Below are positions 264 through 9,749 of a DNA stretch of 15,654 nucleotides, piece by piece. A model generated the notes under the pieces. The model worked only from the letters and a program-made list of their open reading frames with translations. It was not told the origin of the DNA and made no database searches. A program made the translations under genes and the position numbers. How positions within the stretch are numbered: the stretch's first letter is position 1; the number at the start of each line of letters is the position of its first letter. This stretch comes from a virus, in UHGV virus genome UHGV-1635749. One strand, 5' to 3'.

Positions 264-449
264 TTACTGAGTAGACACATCTGCCGGCTTAATGAATTTT
301 TTCCCATCATATAACCAGCCGATACCGACACCTCCTTCAGCCAGTACAGCAATGCCATCCGTTGGCTTCCACTCGGATTCCCCATCCCACACGGCGATAT
401 TGACGACAACACCGTTATTTACAACCGCATAAATTTTGTTTTCATTCAT
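264..449 (-). CDS. Small hypothetical protein (61 aa from ATG at 449) in the position usually held by a tail fiber assembly gene
   Basis: ORF MNENKIYAVVNNGVVVNIAVWDGESEWKPTDGIAVLAEGGVGIGWLYDGKKFIKPADVSTQ. Its ATG (447-449) overlaps the tail fiber stop TAA (449-451) by 1 nt. The track's longer form starts at GTG 464. No family recognised. Confidence 0.45.
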   Translation of the reverse strand: MNENKIYAVVNNGVVVNIAVWDGESEWKPTDGIAVLAEGGVGIGWLYDGKKFIKPADVSTQ

Positions 450-1714
450 TACTGATACTCCCACACAATAATATAACCCTGATAACCGTCATTACCTCTG
501 GACGTTGCACTGTTTGCCGGACTGTATTTACCCGTTCCGCCTTTTCCATAAACGCCAATCATGGTCGAAACTGTGCTTTCGAGTCCGACTGCCATATCAT
601 CACCAAGACCAAAAGCTGCACATGACGGGGAGTGAGAAGCAGAGTGAAACAGAAGTCCGGCCCCTGTTGGTGGTGAAGCTTCGGCGGCACTGCCACCTGA
701 GAACGGAGGAACCTGCTGACGTTGTTGTGAGCCTTTGCCGCCCGGACAAACGAGTAATGAACCAAAACTTGTCTGACCGCCATCTCCACCAGAACCACCA
801 GGCCCCGCACCGCCCACACCACCGGCGCCAATCGTTACAGGTACAGATTCAGGAATATCCTGATAATAAAAAGCCTTTCCGTAGGCTCCAGGAGAACCAG
901 CTGCGCTGATGCCACAGTTATTTGAGGCTGTTGCTGATAAATTGCCACTGGCACCACCACCGCCAACGGCTTCCACTATAATTTTCGTTACACCGGGTGA
1001 TTTGTAGTACATCCCAGAAGTACCGAATACCTGCACTCCAAGTAAACGTCCTGAGCCGTCCCCCAGTGTCAGATACTGAAGCATATCAGGAACATTTTCT
1101 TTACTGATAAATTGACGGCCAGCGAGCGTCAGCGCTGATACTGCCGGAACATTTTTACCAGAAAAAAACAGAACCTGATCAGCGTCAGTTTGCGGCCCCA
1201 GCGTGGAAAGTTTTGTCAGCGTATCGCTGAGGGGTTGTTTGTTTTTTAGCGCTTCTATAAGACCAAGGTATGTGAGAATGTCAGCAATAGTCTTTTTCCC
1301 AATAATGTCACGGCCAACAGAAGTTAAATCAGTCTGTGATGCTGTATCAGTTCCAGTGAAATACGGGAGTTTATTTGCACCGGTTGCGAGCCCAGCCAAT
1401 GCCGTCAGCGTGGCATCAAGCGCCTGGAAATCTTTCCCGAAAGCGGTCCCCATTTTGGATATAAACCCGTTCAGGTCTCCATCATCAAGCACATCCAGCC
1501 CGCTTTTGTTGGCGGTGTACTGCGCCAACGCTGCCGCGATAAAGCTGGCTTGCCGAATAGCTTTGTTGACCTGTGCGCTGGATGCTTTACCTGCCGTAAA
1601 CCCTGAAAGCAGAGCCGGAAGTGCTTCCCAGTCAGCTTGTGAGGTGACGTTAGCGTTCGGATCAAGCGCGAAAGGTTTAAAGTTGTTTATTGCCATTAGA
1701 GTATTGTCCCCCAT
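449..1714 (-). CDS. Tail fiber protein (421 aa; alternative ATG at 1696 gives 415 aa)
   Basis: Residues about 95-153 (nt about 1256-1432), ATLTALAGLATGANKLPYFTGTDTASQTDLTSVGRDIIGKKT...YLGL, match the conserved segment I recall in P2 gpH / Mu S / P1 S-type tail fibers. Gly-rich C-terminal half. Follows the gpI-like gene as in P2 (V-W-J-I-H). The ATG at 1696 overlaps the upstream stop by 1 nt. Confidence 0.85.
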   Translation of the reverse strand: MGDNTLMAINNFKPFALDPNANVTSQADWEALPALLSGFTAGKASSAQVNKAIRQASFIAAALAQYTANKSGLDVLDDGDLNGFISKMGTAFGKDFQALDATLTALAGLATGANKLPYFTGTDTASQTDLTSVGRDIIGKKTIADILTYLGLIEALKNKQPLSDTLTKLSTLGPQTDADQVLFFSGKNVPAVSALTLAGRQFISKENVPDMLQYLTLGDGSGRLLGVQVFGTSGMYYKSPGVTKIIVEAVGGGGASGNLSATASNNCGISAAGSPGAYGKAFYYQDIPESVPVTIGAGGVGGAGPGGSGGDGGQTSFGSLLVCPGGKGSQQRQQVPPFSGGSAAEASPPTGAGLLFHSASHSPSCAAFGLGDDMAVGLESTVSTMIGVYGKGGTGKYSPANSATSRGNDGYQGYIIVWEYQ

Positions 1715-3572: not shown

Positions 3573-3926
3573 TTATGCCTCGCTTGTTACAGTCGTCTGG
3601 CCGTAGATTGTGTCAATGGAGGAAGTGAAAGTGACGCGGCGGCTGGTGCCGTCATAATTGGTATCGAAGGAAAGAATCGACAGAACGCCCGGTGTATCCT
3701 GTATGCGTTCGCGTATAGCCAGGATGTAGACATCTGATCGCTGCTTCCCAAGCACTGACTGAACATACGGCGTGCCTTCCGTCAGATCGAGAAACCACTG
3801 ACCGCGCCACAGCTCGAAACGGGTTTTTACGGCCTGGGCGACACATTCCGGACTGTCGATAAGGAAAGTATCGTCACCCTGGCCGAAAGTGTAATCGCCT
3901 TCAGTATCTTCGCGACGGTATCGCAT
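3573..3926 (-). CDS. Baseplate wedge protein, gpW/gp25-like (117 aa)
   Basis: About 115-aa ORF sandwiched between the spike and the J-like gene, the canonical gpW position. Its start overlaps the spike stop. Confidence 0.6.
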   Translation of the reverse strand: MRYRREDTEGDYTFGQGDDTFLIDSPECVAQAVKTRFELWRGQWFLDLTEGTPYVQSVLGKQRSDVYILAIRERIQDTPGVLSILSFDTNYDGTSRRVTFTSSIDTIYGQTTVTSEA

Positions 3927-4666
3927 TATTGCGGCCCTCCAGTAGTTCCCCCGCCTGTCTGAACTCCGCCATGTTTATGCGTGGCGACACTTATACCTGA
4001 AGCTGTCACATCATTCGTTACCGTAACCGGCCCAAGCATCGTCGCAGTACCACCACTTTCTCCCATTCCCTGAGACAGGTTACCGTTAATCGTTACGTAG
4101 CCGTTCAGCGTGATAGTCGGGGATGTGATTGTCGTTCCACCTTCAGCCGTAGCCGTAAGCTGGCCCGGCGTTTTAATGGTGATGTTATGTCCTGCAGCGA
4201 CCTCTACGAACGCCGCGCCATCATCGGTTCGCAGCTGCGCGGCGCTGGTACTGATACCGCTGATTTTCTGTGCTTGCGACTGCGGGCCAACGATGGCGAA
4301 CGCATCAGATAAGTCATGCTGGCGCGGGTCGACGGTCTCCTGAACGCCGCCGCTCTGCCACCAAAAATCGATGCAACGGTCAGCAAAAATCAGGAGGCAC
4401 TCGTCGCCTTCTTTTACCGGAAAGGTCAGCGTGCAACCGCCGCCGCGCGGGAAGATGACCGGCACATCCACCAGCGGTTTTAATTCGGTGGAGTCGTCGC
4501 CAACAATACCGCGAAGCGCCACTTCTACTGTGCAGGTTACAGCGTCAGGATCGAACGACTGAATGATGCCAGGCATCGCCACGCGCATTTGGGTAGACAC
4601 TGAATCGGCAATGGCCTGGGCGGTCTGCTGCTCGCCGCCGATCTGTGATTGAGTTGGAATTGGCAT
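3926..4666 (-). CDS. Baseplate central spike, P2 gpV-like (246 aa from ATG at 4666)
   Basis: The C-terminus ...SVATHKHGGVQTGGGTTGGPQ resembles the P2 gpV C-terminal HTHKH...GGTTGSP motif as I recall it. The ATG at 4664-4666 follows the terminator T-tract with GGGG upstream. The track's longer ORF (to 4840) would read through the terminator and the cassette's 3' end. Confidence 0.75.
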   Translation of the reverse strand: MPIPTQSQIGGEQQTAQAIADSVSTQMRVAMPGIIQSFDPDAVTCTVEVALRGIVGDDSTELKPLVDVPVIFPRGGGCTLTFPVKEGDECLLIFADRCIDFWWQSGGVQETVDPRQHDLSDAFAIVGPQSQAQKISGISTSAAQLRTDDGAAFVEVAAGHNITIKTPGQLTATAEGGTTITSPTITLNGYVTINGNLSQGMGESGGTATMLGPVTVTNDVTASGISVATHKHGGVQTGGGTTGGPQ

Positions 4667-4675
4667 AAAAACCCC

Positions 4676-4702
4676 ATAAAAAAACCCGCTCGGTGGCGGG
4701 TT
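4676..4702 (-). terminator. Rho-independent terminator closing the AT-rich cassette
   Basis: On the minus strand: AACCCGC-CACCGA-GCGGGTT (7-bp stem, 5 GC pairs) followed by UUUUUAUGGGGUUUUU. The stem overlaps the stop codon of the 145-aa ORF; the U-tract runs straight into the spike ATG. Confidence 0.55.
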
Positions 4703-5138
4703 ATAATTTTGCTTCTGGATAACATCTACAGCGACCATCAGGACAACACTTTCCCTCTCCGGGATGACCACTTTTAGGCGGCTTACTCCACGAAAATGTT
4801 TTCCCATTATTTTTAGCGCATTCTGCACACTCGTCACCATCCTCGCAGGAGCGCCAAATATAACGTTTAATACCCAAGCGAGATTGCTTTATCCTCTCTG
4901 CCTCAGAGTGACGACGGCTATTTTCGGCGAGGTGTTCAGCATAGCGCGCGTTATCCTTCTCAATTTCTTCTTTACTTCGCCGCTTCCCATTTGCTGGCTT
5001 TGATTTTTGGTAAGCAACCCGTTTATTTCGATTGTATGATTTAATAATTTCGTCTTCATTTCTACGCTTTTTAAATTTTAAATATTTAACAAATGCAAAA
5101 ACAATTACGAATAAAATAATAATATATGCAGGTTCCAT
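4701..5138 (-). CDS. Membrane-anchored, basic, Cys-rich hypothetical protein (145 aa) in the AT-rich cassette
   Basis: N-terminal hydrophobic helix AYIIILFVIVFAFVKYL followed by KFKKRR (positive-inside). Lys/Arg/Glu-rich middle. C-terminal CEDGDECAEC...GKTF...HPGEGKCCPDGRCRC putative metal-binding motif. ATG overlaps the upstream stop (TAATG at 5136-5140). Strongly AT-rich codons. Confidence 0.55.
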   Translation of the reverse strand: MEPAYIIILFVIVFAFVKYLKFKKRRNEDEIIKSYNRNKRVAYQKSKPANGKRRSKEEIEKDNARYAEHLAENSRRHSEAERIKQSRLGIKRYIWRSCEDGDECAECAKNNGKTFSWSKPPKSGHPGEGKCCPDGRCRCYPEAKL

Positions 5139-5506
5139 TATTTAACCTTTACGCAATCATAAGTTGCATATTGTCTTGGTGCATCCATGCTGGCTTGCAG
5201 CCACTGAGCATTGAGGATAGCTTTTCCGTTTCGCTTGATGTACTCAAGACCAACCCATCGCCCCGGTTGGTTTGTAGCCATACGCCAATCCATTTTTATA
5301 TTTTCGTAGTCTTCTTTTTGTTTCAGAAATGTCAATTTCTGATACTCGGGCTTTGCTCCATTTATGCGAGGAAAGCCGTCATTAGTACCACTCGTTGAGA
5401 AAGTGAAATCACCGCACTTCATATAGACTTTTCCTGCTGCATTTGCACCGGCAGCAGCTGTTAAGCAAATTAAGCCAGAAAATATTCCTGAGATTATCCT
5501 TTTCAT
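5138..5506 (-). CDS. Secreted (Sec signal peptide) hypothetical protein (122 aa) in the AT-rich cassette
   Basis: N-terminus MKRIISGIFSGLICLTAAAGANA-AGK has a basic n-region, hydrophobic core and ANA-A cleavage-type site, with no canonical lipobox. Two Cys in the mature part. ATG (5504-5506) overlaps the hub stop TAA (5506-5508). Confidence 0.6.
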   Translation of the reverse strand: MKRIISGIFSGLICLTAAAGANAAGKVYMKCGDFTFSTSGTNDGFPRINGAKPEYQKLTFLKQKEDYENIKMDWRMATNQPGRWVGLEYIKRNGKAILNAQWLQASMDAPRQYATYDCVKVK

Positions 5507-6570
5507 TAGGCACCCGTTTTCATCAAAGTCGAATCATTAATCAGGGTAGAAGCTCCACGCGCAAAACACATCAAATCCATGTACCACGCTTGACCTCTAG
5601 TGTCACCAGTATAGTCGATAGCCTTGACGATATAAACGCCATCTGTCGCAATGCTGGCAGCCTGTGACGTCGTGCCGGTCAGCACACGGTTGCCGTTCTC
5701 TTCTGTTTCGGTGATACGCCCGGGCGACTGTGCGATTTCGCTATTGCCGAGCGCGGCGCGGTACACCGAAGCCTGATCGAGCTGGATAAGACCATTAATG
5801 CGGATGTTCGGGTTTATCAGGCACCGCACGTTTACGCCGCCGCCCATCGTCTGTTGCGGCATACCGATCAGGCCAGTATCAGCATTCAACACAATGGCTT
5901 CGTGAATATATTTATCCTCCGGCACCATCTGGACATGACCATCCACCAGTTGCCATGTCGCTTTGCACTGCGCAGCAATATTATCCATCACGTTGCGGCT
6001 GGATGAGTAAATCGCGCGGCCACGAGGAAACACGGTATCAGGAAAATCGCCGGTAATGCCCTGTGTCACGCCGAACGCGTTGAAATCCTGCATCGTCGCC
6101 CGGTGCAGATCCGCAACGGTATAGCCAGCGGCAAGCGTGGTGATGGTAGTCGCGTAGAGGAACGCTTCGTGGTTACTGATGGCCTGAATCAGCACCCAGG
6201 AATCCGTAATGTTGTCCTTCCCGGTGACGGTGAAGCGAATATCACCGTCAAATATCAGGCCGTAGTTCTGACCGTTCACCTGCCCTACCTGGTCTGGTGA
6301 AATCTCCCGGGCGACACCAACCTGGCTCGCATCAACATCCGGCGCAATACCGTCATACCCGGCAATGATGCGAATTTTTGCAAACTCCTGCCCCAGTATC
6401 TTGTTCGTGGTATCGGTCGAAAGGTTGTAAATTTTCACGTTTGCCACGCGCGGCCAGCGTGTATCTGCCCACTCGATCTGGAACGTGACCTTAAAATCAG
6501 ACAGGGAAATACCCTGCCCGTTCTGGTCCAACAGCTGCAACTCAAAATGGCGCATCCAGTTAAGAGACAT
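5506..6570 (-). CDS. Putative baseplate hub protein (P2 gpD / Mu gpP position; 354 aa)
   Basis: Size and position downstream of the tape measure gene and upstream of the spike/wedge genes. AGGAG 6 nt upstream of the ATG at 6570. Assigned by synteny only. Confidence 0.5.
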   Translation of the reverse strand: MSLNWMRHFELQLLDQNGQGISLSDFKVTFQIEWADTRWPRVANVKIYNLSTDTTNKILGQEFAKIRIIAGYDGIAPDVDASQVGVAREISPDQVGQVNGQNYGLIFDGDIRFTVTGKDNITDSWVLIQAISNHEAFLYATTITTLAAGYTVADLHRATMQDFNAFGVTQGITGDFPDTVFPRGRAIYSSSRNVMDNIAAQCKATWQLVDGHVQMVPEDKYIHEAIVLNADTGLIGMPQQTMGGGVNVRCLINPNIRINGLIQLDQASVYRAALGNSEIAQSPGRITETEENGNRVLTGTTSQAASIATDGVYIVKAIDYTGDTRGQAWYMDLMCFARGASTLINDSTLMKTGA

Positions 6571-6879: not shown

Positions 6880-7482
6880 TCATCCCCCGAATGCTGATGT
6901 AACGCTTCCGCCCAGCTGGCTCAGCAAAGATTCGTTTGGCGGTGTAGTGGATTTCGTCCCGGAATTTTGCACCGCCGATGTGCTGACGCCATCCTGCATA
7001 TCTGATTTATCAGCAACGCTAACGCTCTGCGTTTGCGACATGATCACTTCACGCAGGGTAAGCGTGCAGTTCAGCACGTTCTCGCTGGTTTTGTCCGTTG
7101 TCACCTCGATGGCTCTCACCAGCATATTGCTGTACACCCGCTTCCCGGTCACCACATCGAACGGCACCCGGGAGGACTGGAGATCCAGCAGTTGCTGATA
7201 GGTCTCTTTCGGGCTCAGTCCGGCGCTGAGGCCGATTGAAGATGTATCAATGAAGTCCAGCAACGAACCGCCCCCAGCGAAGCCGCATTCCATTGTGACT
7301 TCGCTGGGGCGCTTATACGCATGATCGGCGATGAAACCCGAGGCGCTATTCGTTGTTGGCTTCTCCACCGGGTGCTCAGTAATTTCGAGCGCATCAGAAT
7401 GCTTTTCGGAAACGACCACGCTGGGGATCAGCAGGCCAATTCGCCGTGATTGCTGGCGAAAAATCGCTGATAAAATATCCAT
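6880..7482 (-). CDS. Hypothetical tail protein directly after the tape measure gene (P2 gpU / Mu gpN position; 200 aa)
   Basis: ATG at 7482 overlaps the tape measure stop (7482-7484) by 1 nt. Position typical of a tube-initiator or distal tail protein. No motif recognised. Confidence 0.5.
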   Translation of the reverse strand: MDILSAIFRQQSRRIGLLIPSVVVSEKHSDALEITEHPVEKPTTNSASGFIADHAYKRPSEVTMECGFAGGGSLLDFIDTSSIGLSAGLSPKETYQQLLDLQSSRVPFDVVTGKRVYSNMLVRAIEVTTDKTSENVLNCTLTLREVIMSQTQSVSVADKSDMQDGVSTSAVQNSGTKSTTPPNESLLSQLGGSVTSAFGG

Positions 7483-9749
7483 TATCTCGGTCCTGCGGGG
7501 AGTTGCTGGGTTAACTGTGAATTCACACCCTTTTGACGGTCAACAGTCAAACGGGCAGCTTCGCGAGGATCGGAAACGCCGTGGATGTTAATGTTCGTTT
7601 CCTGCTGAATCACCGGGGCGCTGGTGGGCATATTGCTCATTACTTTCGGAATGTAATTGCGCGTTTCCTGCGGCATTAGCCCCATTCCATAACGTTGAAC
7701 GTTCCCGATTCCCCAGTTATATGATGCAAGTGCTTTGCTAAGGTCTCCGCCGTTCTGCCGCAATAGCTGGCTAAGGTACTTAGCGGCTGCCTGAGCTGAC
7801 TTTTCCGGGTCGAACACATCGTTACCACGCAGGCCCATGTCTCGCGCCGTGCCATCCATGAACTGGAACAGCCCCTTTGCACCCGCGCCGGACATGGCGA
7901 ACTGGTTACCACCTGACTCGGTTATCGCCACACTTTTCAATAGACCAGCTGGAAGTTGATAAAGCGACTCAAGTTTATTGAACATTGGCCCCATCCAGTC
8001 GAGCAATACTTTGCCCTGGGCTGTGGCCTGTGGACGTTTGACTGATTGCGCAAACTGGGAGGGGTCACCCGATATATTTGGAGAGATTTCAGCAGCTCCA
8101 GCCGGGGAGAAAAATAAATTACCGATTTTGGCAATCCCGTCTGAGATTTTTTCAAGATAACCATTAGCAGCCTGCTGACGGTTTTTTATTTCATCTCTTT
8201 CATGCGGGGCAATTTCATTACTACGAACATGCTGTTCCGCCCCGGGAATGTCAGGCTGAACATTATCGCCATAAACGACGCCATTGCTTTGCGCCTGACG
8301 AATAATCTTACCTGGGCCACCATGCAGCCAATCCATCCATGCGGGCCATTCTCTTACCTCGCTAACATCTTTTCGCCCAAGGTCGGTTTTGATGCCAACC
8401 GTAGCAAGAGCATCACCAATGTTCCTTTTGGTATAGTCCAAAGATGATTTAGCACTGGCTTTTATGTTTTCACGATCTGAAACCAGGTAACCAGCATACG
8501 CTCCCCATAATTTAAGCCATGGAGGTATCGGAAGACCGGATATTTTTGCGAATGCTCCCAATACTTTTGTTACCCATACCCCAGCGATGAAAGTAGCCAA
8601 AATTTCCAGCGAGTTCTGCCATCCACCAACAGAATCTTTCAGCCCCAGAAGCTTATCGCGCAGCCAGAGAATTGCCTTTTTCGCCTTTTCTATTGCAGGC
8701 TCCCACTTGGACCAGTCAATCAGGCTTTTACCGCCTTCTTTCCACGTCTGATAATCGTCATAGAGTAATCCGATCGCCAGAATCAGCGTGGTGATAATTC
8801 CAATCGGGGATTTCAGGAACGCAGAATTAAGCAGACGCCATGCGACAAGTAGAGCACCGAATATTTTCAGCAGATTTTTACTGCCATCGTCAAGATGCTT
8901 CCACCAGTCAATGACAGAGCCAGCGCCCTGTATGAGCCGCCACGCCATTCGCGTGAAGGCGTTCGCAAGCCAGATCACGCCTTTAATAACTCTGGTCAGC
9001 GTCTCTTCAATCTTCGGGAAGTTGTCGAGGATGCGCCGCCGCAGGCTGTCCAGCGAACCAGCAAGACCACCAGCGAGGTTTGAGCCGATCTTGTCCCGCA
9101 TAATGCCGAACAGCGACGTAAGCCCGCGCATGGACGTCATGAATTTATTGGACTGCACAGCCGCCTTATCAGCGTTGAACCCAGTCTTTTGCAGCATAGA
9201 CTGGTAATCGGCGGTAAAGCCATTCATGCCGCGCCGCATCGCCATCAGCGTGTTTTCATCGATGCCAAGCATCTGCGCGTATTGCTTCGCGCGGTAATAC
9301 GGCATGTTGTTGAGCTTTTGCCCAACGCCAGTAAAGATGGCCGCAGTATCACGCATCTTTCCGCTGGCATCTCGGGTCTGGACACCAAGACGGTTCAGGA
9401 AGCCTTCCGCCCCCGGATTGCTACGCATGAAACCGGCCAGCCCTTCGAGGGAGGACATGGCCGACTCGGCGCTGGCACCGGTTTGCGACGCGGCATAGCC
9501 CAGCGCTTTGATGCCCTGGACGCTGGCCCCCGTCCGTTGGGATGCCCAGTAAATTTTATCCAGACCATTCGCGATCTGGGTGGTAAATCCGACAATGCTC
9601 AGCGCTGCGCCTTCCACCACCGCGCCGACCTTCAGAACGTTTGCGGTAACGCCTTTCAGCACGGCTTCAAACTTATTAGCGCCAGCCTGATCGATATCGA
9701 ATCCCAGCGAAACAAGGAAGTCTTTAATCGTATCTGCGTTACCGCTCAT
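7482..9749 (-). CDS. Tail tape measure protein (755 aa) with a C-terminal lytic transglycosylase (SLT-like) domain
   Basis: Long ORF directly after the chaperone/frameshift pair. Hydrophobic segments at about aa 292-330 and 381-400. Residues about 585-700 contain ITESGGNQ...GAKGLFQFM...AAKYL...ASYNWG, resembling the family-1 lytic transglycosylase E-S / GLMQ / AYNAG motifs. GGAG upstream of the ATG at 9749. Confidence 0.9.
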   Translation of the reverse strand: MSGNADTIKDFLVSLGFDIDQAGANKFEAVLKGVTANVLKVGAVVEGAALSIVGFTTQIANGLDKIYWASQRTGASVQGIKALGYAASQTGASAESAMSSLEGLAGFMRSNPGAEGFLNRLGVQTRDASGKMRDTAAIFTGVGQKLNNMPYYRAKQYAQMLGIDENTLMAMRRGMNGFTADYQSMLQKTGFNADKAAVQSNKFMTSMRGLTSLFGIMRDKIGSNLAGGLAGSLDSLRRRILDNFPKIEETLTRVIKGVIWLANAFTRMAWRLIQGAGSVIDWWKHLDDGSKNLLKIFGALLVAWRLLNSAFLKSPIGIITTLILAIGLLYDDYQTWKEGGKSLIDWSKWEPAIEKAKKAILWLRDKLLGLKDSVGGWQNSLEILATFIAGVWVTKVLGAFAKISGLPIPPWLKLWGAYAGYLVSDRENIKASAKSSLDYTKRNIGDALATVGIKTDLGRKDVSEVREWPAWMDWLHGGPGKIIRQAQSNGVVYGDNVQPDIPGAEQHVRSNEIAPHERDEIKNRQQAANGYLEKISDGIAKIGNLFFSPAGAAEISPNISGDPSQFAQSVKRPQATAQGKVLLDWMGPMFNKLESLYQLPAGLLKSVAITESGGNQFAMSGAGAKGLFQFMDGTARDMGLRGNDVFDPEKSAQAAAKYLSQLLRQNGGDLSKALASYNWGIGNVQRYGMGLMPQETRNYIPKVMSNMPTSAPVIQQETNINIHGVSDPREAARLTVDRQKGVNSQLTQQLPAGPR

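Follow-up and report, generated by a model that had tools for sequence, protein, structure and literature searches.

Why does the baseplate operon of a contractile-tailed phage carry, between its hub gene and its spike gene, a small gene whose product looks built for export from the cytoplasm? The question is raised by an open reading frame (ORF) of 122 amino acids (aa), here called EXP, on the UHGV virus genome UHGV-1635749, whose whole 15,654 nucleotides (nt) form the window of this study. Judged from its sequence and those of its relatives, EXP is very probably an exported, non-structural accessory protein. The comparison of loci also strongly supports the view that its gene is a moron-like accessory insert of atypical composition between hub and spike. 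The features of EXP itself are the following.

5138 to 5506, minus strand: EXP ORF (PHROG 3443 family), 122 aa with an ATG start, from the ORF listing and translation
5438 to 5506, minus strand: predicted Sec/signal peptidase I (SPase I) signal peptide (MKRIISGIFSGLICLTAAAGANA, followed by AGK), codons 1 to 23, from its n-, h-, and c-region features
5141 to 5437, minus strand: EXP mature domain of 99 aa, modeled as an all-beta meander barrel, from an AlphaFold model and the conserved C31 and C118

A conserved gene of the PHROG 3443 family

A first-pass annotation of this DNA had read a 122-aa protein from the minus strand at this locus, and the present translation, which begins MKRIISGIFSGLICLTAAAGANAAGK, is identical to the one it quoted. 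The ATG of EXP overlaps the stop codon of the upstream baseplate hub gene by one base (TAATG at 5506), and its own stop codon overlaps the ATG of the next gene in the same manner (TAATG at 5138). EXP matches the PHROG 3443 profile with an E-value of 3.1e-42 and 143.9 bits. Residues 13-122 align to profile positions 7-114 of 115, making EXP a full-length member of the family, and its homologues form 104 clusters (90% identity) at E <= 1e-3. That EXP is a real, conserved gene under selection, standing far above a chance ORF, is shown or strongly supported by these data.

No family had been recognized in the first reading, and this held in our searches. Scans of Pfam, NCBIfam, and PADLOC returned no match for EXP or its family, and the sole curated match is PHROG 3443, annotated as ‘unknown function’. 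Since this PHROG is without functional annotation, membership says nothing about mechanism. When 1.84 billion representative proteins were searched exhaustively with the family profile, 59 reached E <= 1e-3. Two of these, the long matches P0157 and P0160, are repetitive proteins of SH3b- or Ig-like type and were discounted as spurious. EXP loci with a known organism are all from Enterobacterales, and one more lies on a marine metagenome contig. When one genome per species was scanned, 26 EXP loci were found, all of them in Enterobacterales. The order in 25 of the 26 is hub, EXP, 0-1.8 kb of variable DNA, and spike, and the remaining locus is an orphan. Two of the 26 keep only a C-terminal remnant of EXP. 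The remnants cover the last 24-42 codons (L047 3995-4123 and L048 4001-4072), and exchange of cargo may use the conserved 3′ end of the gene as a recombination arm. The gene is present in about 20 of the 23 phage records with a hub at least 51% identical. The carriers include sewage phage isolates, and Klebsiella phage Mulock is counted among them with an EXP too diverged for tblastn (E <= 1e-5).

Members of the family are publicly named ‘hypothetical protein’ or, automatically, ‘Secreted protein’. Many deposited entries (the cluster of P0001) are 94 aa long, with the start placed at an internal Met that shortly precedes the first conserved Cys. These short entries arose because GTG or TTG starts, or starts that overlap the hub stop, went unrecognized in gene calling, and reading the DNA behind them restores the leader. 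Truncated starts drop the signal peptide, so automated annotation hides the export signal. We found no paper on the EXP family in the literature on periplasmic exclusion proteins and tail-gene hotspots. The S. Typhi locus tags STY1063-1066 led to nothing relevant in the literature, and the GZ7 papers held nothing informative on EXP.

A predicted export signal

The first-pass annotation described the N-terminus as a Sec-type leader with an AXA-type cleavage site and no lipobox, and these features are indeed seen in EXP. The n-region carries K2 and R3 and precedes a hydrophobic stretch, IISGIFSGLICLTAAA, of about 16 residues. A-N-A stands at -3/-1 ahead of A24, giving a cleavage-type site ANA/A, and inspection of the leader revealed no lipobox. 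EXP therefore shows the sequence features expected of a Sec signal, namely a basic n-region, an h-region, small residues at -3/-1, and no Cys at +1. The leader character is kept in the 34 aligned relatives. A hydrophobic core lies ahead of the conserved Cys in all 34, most of them begin with basic residues and show a small-x-small site (AFA/D, ALA/D, AFS/A), and a lipobox-like motif occurs in just one. The leader is thus conserved in architecture and divergent in sequence.

The mature part had been described as about 99 aa with a Cys near each end, which would suit a disulfide-bonded periplasmic protein. Its length is 99 aa, and C31 and C118 lie near its ends and are conserved across the family; a third cysteine, C14, is within the leader. 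C31 and C118 are among very few conserved columns, the pattern that a structural disulfide formed in an oxidizing compartment would leave. The EXP domain is also found at the C-terminus of two lipoproteins, P0107 (lipobox LSGC) and P0123 (LVSC). These fusions match PHROG 3443 as well, and the P0107 gene occupies the same slot after the hub as EXP. The occurrence of the domain behind two different export signals argues strongly that it is extracytoplasmic. The suggested disulfide-bonded periplasmic protein is consistent with both the Cys pair and the lipoprotein-fused versions.

The EXP domain ends a lipoprotein of ~290 aa at L014 6001-6879, and L033 and L041 likewise have a gap of ~600 nt separating the hub and the EXP domain. 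The N-terminal 190 residues of the ~290-aa lipoprotein, which include four Cys, matched no family.

A modeled beta-barrel fold

The structure of EXP was modeled by AlphaFold2 with a 34-sequence alignment (A1). The mean pLDDT is 85.4, with values of 82-96 beyond the leader and 53-54 over residues 1-20. The model has strands at residues 24-31, 34-39, 55-60, 69-77, 83-92, 95-104, and 113-120, and short bridges around residues 46-51. The first strand starts at residue 24, which is the predicted mature N-terminus. We take mature EXP to be a small beta-barrel that is probably clamped by a disulfide. C31 and C118 are invariant in A1. In a wider alignment (A2), invariance is limited to C31 and L98, and at least 90% of the sequences keep C118. 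No conserved polar or catalytic residues were found in A2, so EXP looks like a binding scaffold and not an enzyme.

Structure prediction with a fold search had been suggested as a check in the first-pass annotation. Both were run, and the all-beta barrel has no significant neighbor in PDB or BFVD, with nothing below E 0.03 in Foldseek. The top viral match, also not significant, is an unannotated ‘Lipoprotein’ of Serratia phage Scapp, on which the Scapp genome paper makes no statement. An outer-membrane beta-barrel was considered and rejected; the strands are short, charged residues lie on both faces, the C-terminal aromatic residue is absent, and a Cys pair is present.

An insert between hub and spike

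The window comes from a SEN34/Brunovirus-like temperate myophage (Salmonella phage SEN34 type). The genes that flank the insertion and the composition of the inserted DNA are as follows.

5506 to 6570, minus strand: baseplate hub gene (PHROG 196 ‘baseplate hub’, E 2e-82; weak Pfam E217_GP41)
3926 to 4666, minus strand: baseplate spike gene (Pfam N-terminal spike domain, E 2e-41, and Apex motif)
4700 to 5500: low-GC block over both inserted genes, GC 0.34-0.42 compared with ~0.52-0.58 in the flanking tail genes

The first-pass annotation stated that a tail operon has no structural need for a periplasm-targeted protein. Related phages bear this out, since the same baseplate is built without EXP in cyanophage Pam3, Providencia PSTCR3, and Acinetobacter Ab105-1phi. 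A paper that cites the Pam3 structure gives gp18 as the plug, followed by gp19 and the spike gp20, with hub and spike directly adjacent (PMC11633184). The hub is also directly followed by the spike in PSTCR3 and Ab105-1phi, which have the same baseplate type. Hafnia phage yong1, an isolated phage with a hub 64% identical, carries an unrelated gene for a cytoplasmic protein in the position of EXP. A baseplate component would be present wherever the baseplate type occurs; relatives lack EXP, and orphan copies of it exist. Klebsiella phage MMNM was set aside as a comparison because it is a different phage type.

In the window, the flanks of the low-GC block stand at a GC of about 0.54. A GC dip is seen in 11 of 11 phage or prophage tail-module loci, with 0.39-0.49 in EXP and 0.50-0.58 upstream, and the drop amounts to 7-14 points in every tail-module locus examined. 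EXP shows several of the marks by which morons are known, being inserted between otherwise adjacent genes, deviating in base composition, and having, at the level of sequence pattern, a downstream terminator.

In the marine relative, EXP lies between the plug and the hub, that is, upstream of the hub. This difference in gene order indicates that adjacency to the hub is what is retained. In a comparison of 23 loci, EXP evolves fastest of all genes in the module; its mean pairwise distance is 0.49, and the other genes range over 0.26-0.45. Of all pairs of distance matrices, those of EXP and the hub show the highest correlation (Spearman 0.65). For EXP, the values are 0.32 with the spike and 0.10 with the wedge gene ‘W’ downstream of the spike, and co-evolution of EXP with the spike is unsupported beyond linkage.

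One EXP locus in GTDB is without tail genes. Diverged orphan copies are found in bacterial chromosomes with no tail genes nearby (L019 5001-5339 and L020 5001-5402). One of these is near tsx and yoaK; the other is beside fliE at a possible prophage-remnant edge (repressor, DinI). Orphan copies without tail genes imply that EXP can work without the phage.

Promoter-like and terminator-like elements

5608 to 5636, minus strand: sigma-70-like promoter TTTATA-17-TATACT, inside the 3′ end of the hub ORF, from a position-weight scan
4678 to 4702, minus strand: terminator-like hairpin AACCCGC-CACCGA-GCGGGTT with U7, from a pattern scan

The site at 5636..5608 has the top sigma-70-like score of the whole window on both strands (12.6 bits). 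When the upstream 350 nt were shuffled 2000 times, only 13 shuffles reached this score. Its -10 element ends ~100 nt before the EXP start. A promoter-like element is located at -99 to -113 in 10 of 10 enterobacterial loci tested and also in EKP1. Because the element overlaps a conserved hub peptide, VYIV..IDYTGD, synonymous sites were tested. Ten hubs, 61-96% identical to that of the window, share 122 invariant columns with degenerate residues, four of which use a single codon. Thr321 of the hub, encoded by ACT (5610-5608), is the sole invariant codon among the 52 fourfold-degenerate invariant-residue columns, and its third base is the final T of the -10 hexamer. Cargo-free relatives have Tyr or Ser at hub position 321, and the -10 is absent. 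These patterns are suggestive and make it somewhat more likely than not that EXP has its own promoter, which would allow expression in the prophage.

The terminator-like hairpin has a 7-bp GC-rich stem and lies immediately after the stop of a 145-aa ORF, ~12 nt before the spike ATG. Analogous hairpins are found directly 3′ of EXP in L003, L007, and L017. In lambdoid late operons, Q-antiterminated polymerase reads through such terminators, and transcripts from internal promoters stop at them. SEN34 carries lambda-like regulatory genes (PMC5261728).

The variable slot and the tail module

4701 to 5138, minus strand: 145-aa protein, the second insert gene, with an N-terminal transmembrane helix and a Cys-rich MuF/SPP1-gp7-like C-terminal domain

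The 145-aa protein matches Pfam Phage_Mu_F at E 3e-5, which falls short of the curated cut-off, and PHROG 324 ‘head morphogenesis’ at E 6e-10, and tblastn gives matches to head-morphogenesis genes. Its transmembrane helix is followed by KFKKRR. The Cys-rich domain is homologous to the C-terminal part of MuF/SPP1-gp7 proteins, including that of this phage type. A full-length homologue adjoins the EXP homologue in Klebsiella phage Mulock. It is possible that this membrane-tethered fragment of a head protein acts as a decoy or exclusion factor.

A variable slot of 0-1.8 kb separates EXP from the spike (~4666-5138, with equivalents in L001-L010, L014, and L023-L050). In relatives, it holds a Phd/Doc toxin-antitoxin pair, DUF4236 on the opposite strand, a HEAGH-motif protein, and several unannotated cytoplasmic proteins. 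Exported or membrane-anchored proteins unrelated to EXP are also encoded at the junction, in Omnitron (128 aa), EKP1 (80 and 107 aa), and SEN34 (gp21). Burkholderia phage Magia has an unrelated signal-peptide protein, gp21, at the same junction on the opposite strand. A PADLOC scan of EXP and eight neighboring cargo proteins returned 0 families. In SEN34-like prophages, this slot may be a hotspot for defense or envelope genes that has so far gone undescribed.

Every large ORF of the window is read from the minus strand, and together they cover a contractile-tail phage from its head-proximal genes to the tail fiber. In the order of transcription, they encode the major capsid, sheath, tube, tape-measure, Dit-like, and Pam3-gp18-like plug proteins, the hub, and EXP, and then the 145-aa protein, the spike, a PHROG 120 wedge, baseplate J, DUF2612, and a fiber. 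The PHROG 120 baseplate wedge subunit belongs to the Sheath_initiator family in a related locus. The records nearest to the window come from enterobacterial prophages and from Citrobacter phage Omnitron. In nucleotide sequence, the window shares 96.8% identity with E. coli 2021CK-01361, and the EXP protein shares 98% with its counterpart in Pantoea stewartii ATCC 8199. The spike starts at the ATG at 4666 (246 aa) and not at the start of the mechanical 304-aa ORF 3926-4840, which overlaps the 145-aa gene. The 4666 start is supported by RefSeq spike genes of 741 nt in near-identical prophages, by an upstream GGGG resembling a ribosome-binding site, and by the Omnitron spike ORF, which begins with MPIPTQSQ.

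The tape-measure protein (7482-9749, minus strand) has a C-terminal soluble-lytic-transglycosylase motif, ESGGNQ...GLFQF. Its relatives are annotated as ‘lytic transglycosylase’, and PF01464 is found in a related locus. This domain is a candidate target for a periplasmic inhibitor encoded nearby. The tail fiber (449-1714, minus strand) has a long glycine-rich C-terminal region, GGGGASG...GAGGVGGAGPGGSGGDGG, without a Pfam match, and it matches many PHROG tail-fiber families piecemeal.

Possible functions of EXP

Small periplasmic superinfection-exclusion proteins with a cleavable signal peptide are known from T4 (Spackle; Sp, gp61.3) and P1 (Sim). They act against the tail tip or the DNA-entry step of incoming myophages. 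EXP is of the same size class, carries an export signal as they do, belongs likewise to a contractile phage, and is encoded close to tail-tip genes, but has no sequence or fold relationship to either. Spackle is a helical protein whose gene is among the early genes of a virulent phage and is not inserted in a baseplate operon, whereas EXP is modeled as an all-beta barrel and its gene lies within the baseplate operon.

The explanation that we consider best combines a moron, export, two modes of expression, and exclusion. As a whole, we hold it tentatively, somewhat short of an even chance. A cleavable Sec signal peptide would direct EXP to the periplasm, where it would fold, and EXP would be neither a virion nor an assembly component. 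Late expression would come from read-through and translational coupling with the hub. Expression in the lysogen would start from the sigma-70 promoter within the last 130 nt of the hub ORF and end at the hairpin and U-tract before the spike. Periplasmic EXP would then bind the tail tip (hub, spike, or the tape-measure lytic transglycosylase) of incoming related contractile phages after puncture of the outer membrane, and would thereby protect the lysogen or the infected cell from superinfection. Taken alone, periplasmic superinfection exclusion is our best guess at the function of EXP, though a doubtful one. It is suggested by the analogy to Spackle and Sim, the defense or envelope slot, the rapid evolution, the linkage to the hub, and the binder-like conservation. 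A more specific version would make EXP a new periplasmic anti-phage family that neutralizes the hub/spike complex and is locked to its cognate hub, with a hub-codon promoter that also powers the defense-cargo slot; we regard it as rather unlikely.

Several observations weigh against exclusion by a lysogen-expressed moron. The Pfam and PADLOC scans found no similarity of EXP to known exclusion or defense proteins, and we found no expression, proteomic, or phenotypic data for any member. The covariation of EXP and hub is explicable by physical linkage, and that of EXP and spike is weak. A dispensable moron would not usually be retained in as much as ~90% of a clade. As for the promoter, protein constraint on the overlapping hub peptide could explain most of the hexamer conservation, the carriers of the motif are all of one clade, and a simple pattern scan gave no more promoter-like sites around EXP than chance. 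The hairpin folds at -11.1 kcal/mol with a z-score against shuffles that is not significant. The one-base overlap couples EXP translation tightly to the late hub gene, which suggests mainly late expression and fits less well with protection of the lysogen.

EXP could instead be a periplasmic inhibitor of peptidoglycan hydrolases, similar to MliC/PliC or Ivy and directed against host lysozymes or lytic transglycosylases. As modeled, it is a small two-Cys beta-barrel of the general MliC/PliC shape. Like those ~100-aa Cys-containing periplasmic or lipoprotein beta-barrels (PF09864), it has soluble and lipoprotein versions, and the tape-measure protein of its module ends in the SLT-type domain. 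Membership in MliC/PliC was rejected; none of 38 members matched PF09864 at E <= 10, hhalign aligned the signal peptides only, and MliC/PliC structures are not among the closest fold neighbors of EXP. We consider an inhibitor role quite unlikely.

A role as a late helper seems quite unlikely too. Here, EXP would spare progeny from being lost on dying cells or debris, block lysis from without, or tune the timing of lysis. The TAATG overlaps do tie its translation to that of the late hub gene, its linkage to the hub is constant, and ~90% of the clade phages have it, sewage isolates included. However, orphan chromosomal copies function without phage late genes, and the promoter and terminator evidence favors expression outside the late operon. 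Furthermore, surface receptors would be hard to mask by a soluble periplasmic protein, and the EXP gene is distant from the lysis cassette.

We judge it decidedly improbable that EXP is an avidin- or calycin-like barrel that sequesters a vitamin, siderophore, or lipid as a lysogen fitness factor with no link to defense. W74 and W101 of EXP align with the biotin-contacting W70 and W97 of avidin, but these residues are not conserved across the wider family. The hhalign probability with avidin is 4%, no PF01382 match was found, and Foldseek gave nothing significant, so similarity to avidin or streptavidin was rejected.

That EXP is a baseplate component or an assembly chaperone, with its N-terminus used as a membrane-insertion segment at infection, is highly improbable; it sits amid baseplate genes, is coupled to the hub and covaries with it, and in E217, too, an ORF (gp42) separates hub gp41 from tip gp43, but the same baseplate type is built without EXP, lipoprotein-fused and orphan versions exist, the GC content is atypical, and gp42, never mentioned in the main text of the E217 virion-structure paper (PMC10329688), is unrelated to EXP and has no leader. 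The SEN34 paper contains no virion proteomics (PMC5261728).

Relation to known morons and significance

Envelope morons are well known from lambdoid tail regions, examples being lambda Lom and Bor, phi80/N15 Cor, HK97 gp15, and Gifsy-2 SodCI. Classic morons are inserts of atypical composition between genes that adjoin each other in relatives. They bring a promoter and a terminator of their own, and the lysogen profits from their exported or membrane products. EXP resembles them in its insertion, GC dip, promoter-like site, and terminator-like hairpin. It differs in that its family is unrelated, its site is the hub-spike junction of a myophage baseplate, its promoter-like site is inside the upstream ORF, and its start overlaps the hub stop. 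Moreover, EXP is kept in nearly the whole clade, whereas classic morons are sporadic. Exported-protein morons in tail operons are textbook cases, so the kind of gene is known and the surprise voiced in the first-pass annotation was only moderately warranted. What is new is the EXP family, for which we found no Pfam or NCBIfam model, characterized member, or close fold neighbor. Also new are the fact that nearly every member of one prophage clade carries it, the predicted placement of a promoter inside an ORF, and the adjacent cargo hotspot.

If EXP is only a fitness factor for some ligand, it would be a routine moron. The locus offers a test case for an ORF-embedded promoter, in which a synonymous change of ACT to ACC should uncouple hub function from cargo expression, and it marks a cargo hotspot that can be mined for defense genes. 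SEN34/Brunovirus-like prophages are found in E. coli, Salmonella, Klebsiella, Citrobacter, Enterobacter, Serratia, Yersinia, and Pantoea, and nearly all of them carry EXP. Should EXP block phage entry, it would be a compact and structurally new periplasmic binder of a tail-tip component, and a further cause of phage-therapy failure in lysogens.

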